Positions 54,787-57,241 of a stretch of DNA of 64,000 bases are shown here, piece after piece. Numbering within the stretch: the stretch's first letter is position 1; every line of letters starts with the position of its first letter. Under the pieces are notes generated by a model that saw only the letters and a program-made list of their open reading frames with translations, was not told the origin of the DNA and did not search any database. The translations under genes were made by a program, and so were the position numbers. Origin of the DNA: Enterobacteria phage Aplg8. The DNA is taken from the sequence record NC_054902.1; one strand, 5' to 3'.

Positions 54787-55647
54787 TTACACCGCCATCT
54801 TTCCTTTAATAGGAGGGTGTGATTCATAGTTGTTAAGAATAAAATTATGCGGCTTTGCGAATTGACTCAACCAAAATACCTGCGATTCTGTGTCCCATTC
54901 ATCAAATTCATCTGGAAATTTTAATTGCAATTCGCATAAATCCATAGGTTCACGACGCAAAATTTCTTTACATTGCTCTACGTGATTCATATAGATATGA
55001 GTATTACCACCAGAAAATATCAAATCTCCGGGAATAAGATTACACATCTTAGCTACAATATGCGTCAAGGCAGCGTACGAGGCAATGTTGAATGGCAAGC
55101 CCAAGAAAACATCTACACTTCTTTGGTACCACTGCAAATCCAAATAGCCATTACGCACATTAAACTGATAGAACATATGACAAGGCGGTAATGCCATATA
55201 TTTAAGTTCAGCTGGATTCCACGCAGAAACAATTTGACGCCTATCATTCGGCAGTTTTTTAATACGATCAATAACTTCTACAATTTGGTCTACACCGCCA
55301 AAATCACGCCATTGTTTTCCATAAATTGGACCAAGTTCACCGCTATGGTATCCTAAATCTTTTGCCTGATTTTCGTAATTTTCATCCCAAACTGTTTTGC
55401 CTTGGATTAATGAATCATGCTGAATTAATCGTAAATCATTGACATTTGTGCTTCCTGACAAAAACCATATTAACTCAGCAATGCATGCATTCCAGGCGAG
55501 CTTTTTAGTTGTTACTGCAGGAAAACCTTTGGTTAAATCCCAACGCAATTTAGTACCGAACAAAGCAATTGTTCCTGTGCCTGTTCGGTCATCGGTTTCA
55601 TAACCATTTTCAAAAATGTCTTTAATTAAATCTTGGTATTGTTTCAT
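54787..55647 (-). CDS. td: thymidylate synthase (uninterrupted)
   Basis: 286-aa continuous ORF; active-site region PPCH..FYQ; no intron. Confidence 0.96.
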
Positions 55648-55684
55648 TTAGTACCTTATATAAATTATAATACATTTTATGAAG

Positions 55685-56050
55685 CTAATAATTAAACGGT
55701 TTAGCATCAAATTTTCTCTCAATTTCAGGCGTGAAATATAATTCTTTACCGCGTTTGGAAAAACGACCAATAATATGATAATTATTCTCATCAAACGTGA
55801 TATTGCCGATATCCATAGCTTTCAACCAAATATCGATATTTCTGTCAAGCTTTATATCAAAATTCCAATACGGAGAACTATTACCAAAAATACTGCAAGC
55901 GGATTCAGTGAAACAACTGCTATAAATTTTGTCTTTAGGAACTATTAATTGATAGACGCCTTTAATAAACTGAGGACCTTGCCATTTTGGTTGTTTCGCG
56001 TCTTTTTCTAATAGAATAGGGTAATAATTAAAATTCATATTTTCCGCCAC
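55685..56050 (-). CDS. hypothetical protein inserted between frd and td
   Basis: 121-aa ORF filling a 411-bp gap between the frd stop and the td start. Confidence 0.6.
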   Translation of the reverse strand: MAENMNFNYYPILLEKDAKQPKWQGPQFIKGVYQLIVPKDKIYSSCFTESACSIFGNSSPYWNFDIKLDRNIDIWLKAMDIGNITFDENNYHIIGRFSKRGKELYFTPEIERKFDAKPFNY

Positions 56051-56058
56051 GTATTATT

Positions 56059-56881
<823 letters not shown>

Positions 56882-56885
<4 letters not shown>

Positions 56886-57241
56886 ATTACCTCCCACTGA
56901 AAGGGGCCAGAAGCAAATCCGCTATCTTTAATCATTTTAACTAAAGTTACCATTCCTCTGTTAACTGCTTGCGCGATTTCATCAAAAACTTCATCACTAT
57001 CACCATAAAGATCGCTAAAAAGTTCTAACACATTCTTCTGAACTTTTAATTTACAGCCAACAAATTCGCCTACAGTAAATTCGTTTCCGCCAACTCCAGC
57101 GTAAAACGTAATTACACCAGTTAATGGTCTTTCACTAGAACATAGGTCGTGTGATAAATTAATATAAGCCGTCCCGGGTACAGTTTTAAGTTGGCAACGA
57201 ATACTTACTCGAGCAATTCCAGCTACATGAATGTCAGACAT
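56882..57241 (-). CDS. hypothetical protein (T4 frd.2 position)
   Basis: 119-aa ORF. Confidence 0.6.

Follow-up and report, generated by a model that had tools for sequence, protein, structure and literature searches.

The region between the genes for dihydrofolate reductase (frd) and thymidylate synthase (td) was analysed in a 64,000-nucleotide stretch of DNA from Enterobacteria phage Aplg8 (NC_054902.1), which is called the window below. According to the window coordinates and the ORF list the frd-td gap comprises exactly 411 bp (55648..56058), as stated in the initial annotation, and the minus strand carries every gene of this region. The gap contains a small gene, referred to as gene A, flanked by two spacers, and the features of the locus are the following:

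54787..55647, minus strand: td (thymidylate synthase), 286 aa, Pfam Thymidylat_synt PF00303 (E 4.8e-95), the downstream neighbour
55642..55650: 9-nt direct repeat TAAATGAAA, copy on the right, at the start of td
55648..55684, minus strand: A-td spacer, 37 nt, with a Shine-Dalgarno-like AAGG for td at 55654-55657
55662..55685, minus strand: candidate MotA-type middle promoter GCTTCA-N12-TAATTT just 5' of td, a pattern match only
55685..56038, minus strand: gene A, 117 codons plus TAG, MNFNYYPILLEKD...KPFNY*, PHROG 1928
56039..56050, minus strand: 4-codon upstream extension from a GTG; no Shine-Dalgarno sequence precedes the GTG and homologues start later
56039..56058, minus strand: frd-A spacer, 20 nt, AATAATACGTGGCGGAAAAT
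56054..56062, minus strand: mini-ORF ATG-AAA-TAA (M-K-stop) sharing the reading frame of gene A, its ATG overlapping the frd stop codon (ATGA)
56057..56065: 9-nt direct repeat TAAATGAAA, copy on the left, at the end of frd
56059..56640, minus strand: frd (dihydrofolate reductase), 193 aa, Pfam DHFR_1 PF00186, the upstream neighbour
56640-56897, minus strand: 85-aa ORF without Pfam match between frd and frd.1, one of a pair matching T6 RB32ORF231c/RB51ORF237
56882-57241, minus strand: DUF7247 protein, 119 aa, also between frd and frd.1, the other one of this pair

Shigella phage Sf22 and the window are ~99.9% identical over the frd-td stretch; gene A is named gp131 in Sf22 and RB32ORF229c in the T6 record. 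With a GC content of 31% vs 37-38% gene A is more AT-rich than its neighbours. Close to its 3' end the window allele has a 1-nt deletion as compared to T6 and Bas39 (AAACCGT-TTAATTATTAG vs AAACCGTATTAATTATTAG; 55685-55700, minus strand), resulting in the C-terminus KPFNY* instead of the KPY* found in T6 and Bas39. Plus-strand ORFs in the gap are all short. A search with an HMM of the gene A family revealed no paralogue elsewhere in the window, nor in the 7-kb frd region of T4.

Two further observations concern the surroundings. In the window td is an uninterrupted, intron-less ORF of 286 codons, whereas td of T4 and T6 is split by a group I intron with I-TevI; intron and gene A do not track each other, as A occurs without the intron in the window and together with it in T6, while T4 has the intron but not A. 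Moreover, the T4 record has no annotated counterparts of the 85-aa ORF and the DUF7247 gene, a gap of 71 nt being all that lies between its frd and frd.1, and the frd neighbourhood of T4 as a whole is reduced compared to T6, Sf22 and other genera.

In the ORF list the gap is represented by a GTG-start ORF of 121 aa (55685..56050, minus strand). This is the ORF of the initial annotation, which did not give the strand; the translation matches, but the length has to be corrected. Database versions of gene A comprise 115-116 aa and begin with MNFNYY, the N-termini of homologues read MNFNYY, MFNYY or MYY, and the position of the start is kept in two metagenomic contigs: in L016, which carries a 62%-identical relative, the ATG of gene A overlaps the frd stop codon as ATGA, and in L015 a GTG is located at the equivalent codon. 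Judging from the database starts and the position kept in these relatives, the ATG at 56038 (117 aa) and not the GTG at 56050 is the conserved start of gene A. The extension 56039..56050 is thus probably an untranslated spacer and the upstream GTG is probably unused.

The 20-nt frd-A spacer appears to have a coding past. If the frd frame is followed beyond its TGA, a second TGA is reached at 56035-56037 (minus strand) that overlaps the gene A ATG as ATGA, and in the Mosigvirus KMB38 the stretch homologous to the spacer is frd coding sequence. On these two grounds the spacer is apparently the relic of a longer 3' end of frd, which was once coupled directly to A as in L016. The mini-ORF at the frd stop codon is kept as ATGAAATAA in T6 and Bas39. 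On the other side of gene A, the 37-nt A-td spacer has no equivalent in T4, since td is coupled to frd there. The MotA-type pattern within this spacer occurs 24 times in the window, 16 of these on the minus strand, vs 13.1 +/- 3.5 expected matches; if the pattern is functional, A-bearing phages would have a separate td promoter that is absent in T4. A scan for sigma-70 promoters and terminators gave nothing beyond chance.

Gene A is a genuine gene under very strong purifying selection. Pairwise comparisons of the window, T6, Bas39 and KMB38 yield dN/dS values of 0.00-0.05, with 6-33 synonymous vs 0-10 non-synonymous differences. The protein matches the HMM of PHROG 1928, which is annotated as unknown function, with E 4.6e-35 (residues 8-115 aligned to positions 2-125 of the 126 in the profile), and a 116-aa cluster with 154 members is 96-97% identical to it. 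An exhaustive HMM search of 1.84 billion representative proteins retrieved only 21 clusters. The genuine matches all stand alone with ~95-116 aa, none of them being fused to DHFR or TS, and the single long match, P0022 (321 aa, four stretches), was discarded as an unrelated repeat protein.

By tblastn the family was found in 579 phage records, including T2 and T6. Among these, 361 are >90% identical and belong to Tequatroviruses (T2 and T6 among them) and some Mosigviruses; the other 218 are <60% identical and come from T4-like phages of Klebsiella, Enterobacter, Citrobacter, Salmonella, Serratia, Erwinia and Proteus, where the gene, if annotated, overlaps or abuts dihydrofolate reductase. In eight or more further Straboviridae groups the same position between frd and td is taken by members with 29-43% identity. 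The following inspected loci all have a family member in the frd-td gap: CC31, the Edwardsiella phage PEi26, S16 (Gelderlandvirus), Mineola (Jiaodavirus), the Erwinia phage FBB1 (Roskildevirus), the Klebsiella phage HMGUkp2, KMB38 (Mosigvirus) and the metagenomic contigs L012, L013, L015 and L016; likewise, the window, T6 and Bas39 have a PHROG 1928 member at this place. The only member found away from frd/td is 29% identical and resides on contig L014 (ERZ27260015 k141_230232, 1248-1577). This T4-like contig also encodes RegB and a ValRS-modifier homologue, and the member has the gene for a zinc-ribbon/TM2 protein on one side and that for an RlaP-family nucleotidyltransferase on the other.

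In many genera the slot holds more than one gene, i.e. an array frd-A-B-(C)-td, in which B is a tandem paralogue of A and stop and start codons usually overlap (-4 to -35 nt in most inspected loci, with ATGA at all three junctions in S16). Paralogue B (~113-151 aa) is present in CC31, PEi26, S16, L013, L015, L016, HMGUkp2 and FBB1, matches the gene A family HMM with E 1e-9 to 1e-14, belongs to the same PHROG 1928, which S16 gp155/gp154 match as well, and carries an insertion of ~22 aa after the QxxW motif. In FBB1 (L017 3059-3791) the order of A and B is apparently reversed (frd, B-like gene of 151 aa, A-like gene of 99 aa, td), the B-like copy being of unusual length. Gene C (68-69 aa, PHROG 9550) is unrelated to A and precedes td in HMGUkp2 and L016. 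Its sequence starts with MSNKLKVKDVPNAM..., and it is located at 684-890 in L008 (fPS-90 g234c), at 3154-3360 in L018 and at 3170-3379 in L016; in Tequatroviruses its overlap with frd reads ATGA and that with td TAATG. C of the Yersinia phage fPS-90 is ~80% identical to C of HMGUkp2 and L016, where the DHFRs share 46-49%, an agreement that points to very strong constraint or, alternatively, to recent horizontal exchange.

The comparison of the junction across T4-like genomes, proposed in the initial annotation, was carried out for Tequatroviruses on an even sample of 60 out of 513 Tequatrovirus-type records with a 192-nt flank probe. Three states were found, A being the commonest:

A only: probe span ~608 bp, ~42 of 60 records (~70%), including the window, T2 and T6
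C only: probe span ~398 bp, ~13 of 60 records (~20%), as fPS-90 g234c
Empty: probe span 192 bp, 4 of 60 records (~7%), T4 records, G28 and G2133

Further empty junctions were seen in T4T, RB55, RB59 and vB_EcoM_112. At the A loci of Tequatroviruses the 20- and 37-nt spacers take the place of the overlapping junctions.

The T4 junction itself is as described in the initial annotation: frd (145109..145690) and td (end 145112) overlap by 4 nt (145109-145112, ATGA) and there is no ORF between them, so that gene A is indeed an accessory gene, present in the window and missing in T4. The direction of the change is, however, best read as the opposite of the insertion that had been implied. A is the majority state in Tequatroviruses and holds the same slot across genera, and removal of the sequence between the two copies of the TAAATGAAA repeat yields the T4 junction TATATAAATGAAACAATAC exactly. 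T6 and Bas39 share the repeat, and in KMB38 it comprises 8 nt. As shuffling of the two 55-nt junction windows produces a shared 9-mer in 4.6% of the cases, the repeat by itself is modest evidence. We had also considered the left junction to be a duplicated td start, the first 12 nt reading ATGAAAtAATAC vs ATGAAAcAATAC, but this idea was downgraded because T6 reads ATGAAATAACGC here and because of the homology to the 3' coding sequence of Mosigvirus frd; the robust feature of the junction is the 9-nt repeat and not a td duplication.

The relationships of the flanking gene point in the same direction. T4 frd is 96.6-97.4% identical to frd of T6 and Bas39, both of which have A, and of fPS-90, which has C. 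The window frd is ~94% identical to frd of T4, T6, Bas39 and fPS-90, and frd of the A-bearing Mosigvirus outgroup is 86% identical. Moreover, gene A of the window and T6 differ by a dS of 0.27, i.e. their divergence is as deep as the frd split. Judged by these identities and by this dS, the empty state of T4 is nested among occupied lineages. Between genera gene A is less conserved than DHFR (31-33% vs 46-49% identity). Alleles are clearly exchanged within the slot, as read from the 62% identity of gene A between the window and L016 although their DHFRs share 49%, and from the ~80% identity of C where DHFRs share 46-49%. Since the repeat is modest evidence alone and exchange within the slot occurs, we rate it as likely, but not proven, that the T4 junction is a deletion derivative that lost ~415 bp between the TAAATGAAA repeats. 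Gene A is, on the sequence comparisons, not a recent mobile insertion, and the textbook frd/td ATGA overlap of T4 is most likely a derived, minority arrangement.

The gene A product has a mass of 13.9 kDa and a pI of 8.5. Scans of the protein against Pfam, NCBIfam and PADLOC gave nothing above noise (PADLOC: 0 families at E up to 10), in line with the earlier statement that no motif can be recognised, and the same holds for Pfam scans of 24 family members. PDB sequence-profile searches returned non-significant matches only (TagH with E 0.036, dynein), which are regarded as chance. An AlphaFold2 model based on a 19-sequence alignment reached a pLDDT of 83.7 and a pTM of 0.77 and replaced an earlier model from 6 sequences (pLDDT 70.8). 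It shows strands at residues 6-12, 27-34, 38-40, 48-50 and 62-64, a helix at 68-76, and strands at 80-82, 86-96 and 99-104. The predicted fold is a small beta-barrel with one helix and may be classified as weakly OB-like, with the order b1-b2-b3-helix-b4-b5; structural matches are weak and almost all OB folds. Comparison of the model with structures in the PDB revealed no significant match, no nuclease-like fold and no fold similarity to solved anti-defence proteins or sponges (Tad1, Tad2, Acb2 and relatives), and the matches in BFVD are exclusively uncharacterised proteins of T4-like phages (PM2, Muldoon, Cronus, Aeromonas Ah1, phiAS5).

Among 24 diverse family members only Q16, W19, G27, G91, K95 and G97 are invariant, and L9, Y29, N79, F93 and F102 are nearly so, giving rise to the family motifs QxKW, (H/K)G(I/V)Y, GN and (I/F)GRFxKxG...F.P. 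No acidic, His, Cys or Ser residue is invariant in this set, and the absence of invariant residues of a catalytic type argues against any enzyme, nucleases included. In the AlphaFold model the conserved positions fall in the b1-b2 loop, strand b2 and the b4-b5 hairpin. These are the usual ligand-binding elements of OB folds.

Taken together, the best overall explanation, to which we assign a probability of about 0.6, is that gene A is a constrained accessory gene and the usual occupant of the frd-td slot, that it encodes a non-catalytic binding protein and that the T4 overlap is derived. The protein would be made early, from the transcript that also yields DHFR and TS, and in most genera its translation would be coupled to that of the two enzymes. 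As a soluble, non-catalytic small-barrel protein it would act by binding, and the partner may be contacted via the face formed by the conserved loop and hairpin. In a rough ranking of such partners, single-stranded nucleic acid comes first, though only as a tentative candidate; a host or defence protein follows as a possibility we consider rather unlikely, and phage DHFR, TS or the dNTP-synthesis complex comes last and is doubtful. As T4 lacks gene A, the gene is dispensable in laboratory hosts.

The alternative that survives best is that the gene A product is an anti-defence or host-takeover factor, which binds and neutralises a host protein, e.g. an immune sensor or effector or a nucleotide-depleting enzyme, the position between frd and td being merely historical. 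In favour of such a factor, gene A is small, located in the early region, non-enzymatic and dispensable, it shows presence/absence and allele-replacement polymorphism inside one genus, it diverges faster between genera than DHFR (31-33% vs 46-49% identity), it is more AT-rich than its neighbours (31% vs 37-38% GC) and one member lies outside the frd-td slot. However, selection within lineages is purifying and not diversifying, and the position is fixed over many genera, unlike in typical anti-defence islands, which are shuffled. Moreover, the model matches no fold of solved anti-defence proteins or sponges in the PDB, and gene A was not found in the text or supplements of those accessory-gene and sponge screens that were consulted. 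We thus regard this alternative as possible but not probable.

Gene A, alone or with B, could instead be an accessory subunit or regulator of the thymidylate cycle that binds or tethers DHFR and/or TS within the dNTP complex at a fixed ratio. This would agree with the frd-td location in all complete phage genomes that were examined, across at least nine genera or lineages, with the stop/start overlaps on both sides in most of them (ATGA at 3/3 junctions in S16) and with the tandem paralogues A and B, which suggest a hetero-oligomer. Yet T4 and ~27% of the Tequatroviruses lack A, and DHFR, TS and the dNTP complex of T4 are fully functional. Further points against such a subunit are that no fusion to DHFR or TS exists among 1.8 billion representative proteins and that the one member away from frd/td, P0024, exists; besides, T4-like genomes are collinear in general, which accounts for the synteny even if no function connects the genes. 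Consequently, we consider a role in the thymidylate cycle improbable.

The remaining explanations are effectively eliminated. The insertion of a mobile nuclease, such as a free-standing homing endonuclease, between frd and td, the guess made in the initial annotation, would fit the presence/absence polymorphism at a T-even gene junction as well as the known role of td as a hotspot of the I-TevI intron, and the gene is labelled as a homing endonuclease in Bas39 (FriedrichMiescher), AndreasVesalius, AdolfPortmann and ValerieMcCarty04. Sequence and fold effectively refute it: GIY-YIG, HNH, LAGLIDADG and PD-(D/E)XK domains are absent in 24/24 members, no D, E, H or C is invariant in the family alignment, and neither a nuclease fold nor a DNA-binding or nuclease module is found. 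The protein has 117 aa vs 245 aa in I-TevI and is half the size of the T4 seg/mob enzymes, members with 29-43% identity occupy the same slot across genera, and dS within the genus is comparable to that of the flanking frd; a mobile nuclease is therefore highly improbable. Least probable of all is a chance ORF in a non-coding spacer, which the missing known domain and the AT-richness might suggest and which is refuted by the conservation pattern, i.e. dN/dS of 0.01-0.05 and 21 clusters at 50% identity with conserved motifs, as well as by the confident fold prediction and by the strand distribution, plus-strand ORFs in the gap being short and the neighbours all lying on the minus strand.

The endonuclease label is not the only one that gene A bears in databases. 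'Putative homing endonuclease' is used in BASEL phage records and one record of a Klebsiella phage (ValerieMcCarty04), and in other GenBank records a second 'putative dihydrofolate reductase' is listed over gene A; records with one or the other label are MZ501066, MZ501050, MZ501046, OR271596, MW749001, OK272476, OK272473 and OM386666. Our domain, motif and fold tests support neither label.

How does gene A relate to known systems? It agrees with PHROG 1928 (RB32ORF229c, gp131, CC31p239, S16 gp155/gp154) in slot, size (~100-117 aa) and motifs, differing in that the window allele ends with KPFNY* and not with KPY* and in that Tequatroviruses keep only paralogue A. With OB folds (SSB/RPA14-32/Stn1-Ten1, S1/cold-shock, HIN, RecO N-domain) it would share the predicted strand order and barrel size, and its conserved aromatic and basic residues would likewise be placed in the b1-b2 loop and the b4-b5 hairpin. 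Like the Seg/Mob enzymes and I-TevI it occupies an intergenic T-even position and is present or absent between close relatives; in contrast to them it has no nuclease domain or catalytic residues, is about half the size and constitutes a diverged family in one slot across genera that is not sporadically mobile. Finally, frd.1/DUF5417, frd.2/FRD2, DUF7247, nrdA.1/DUF4326 and nrdA.2/DUF5496 are also small early-region genes of unknown function among frd, td and nrdA that are variably present between T-even phages, but the ORFs from frd.1 to nrdA.2 have no sequence relation to gene A, whose family, in contrast to these ORFs, lacks a Pfam entry so far.

As an ORF gene A is already known, since the annotation of T2, T6, RB phages and hundreds of isolates lists it as a hypothetical protein, and it is an ordinary accessory gene of PHROG 1928, not a novel mobile insertion. 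A literature search for RB32ORF229c, phrog_1928 or peptide strings, which most subscription-journal papers lay outside of, found no discussion of the gene, and it is not mentioned in the T4-genomes review, the accessory-gene screens and the sponge preprint. Our analysis adds the corrected start, the A-B-C array with its differential retention and the tandem paralogy, and, moreover, the case for a deletion in T4, the prediction of a weakly OB-like, enzyme-free fold and the finding that the endonuclease and dihydrofolate reductase labels lack support. These labels should not be propagated.

The gene A family has neither a Pfam entry nor a significant structural relative, yet it is under strong constraint and has a fixed position, which makes it a tractable target in the search for a new small phage effector. 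As a more far-reaching idea, A and B might represent an unrecognised fold family of dedicated non-catalytic partners of the phage thymidylate cycle, or new anti-host effectors that T4 lacks. They would be made in a fixed ratio with DHFR and TS in order to tether or regulate them, e.g. by linking dTMP synthesis to DNA or RNA via the OB-like surface, or in order to neutralise a host factor that attacks the nucleotide supply. We consider this idea unlikely; if it was true, T4, on which the picture of the dNTP-synthetase complex is based, would be a reduced variant without that component. Most T4 relatives have one to three small genes in the frd-td slot, and models of DHFR/TS expression and assembly that are based on T4 may thus omit components that most T-even phages have.
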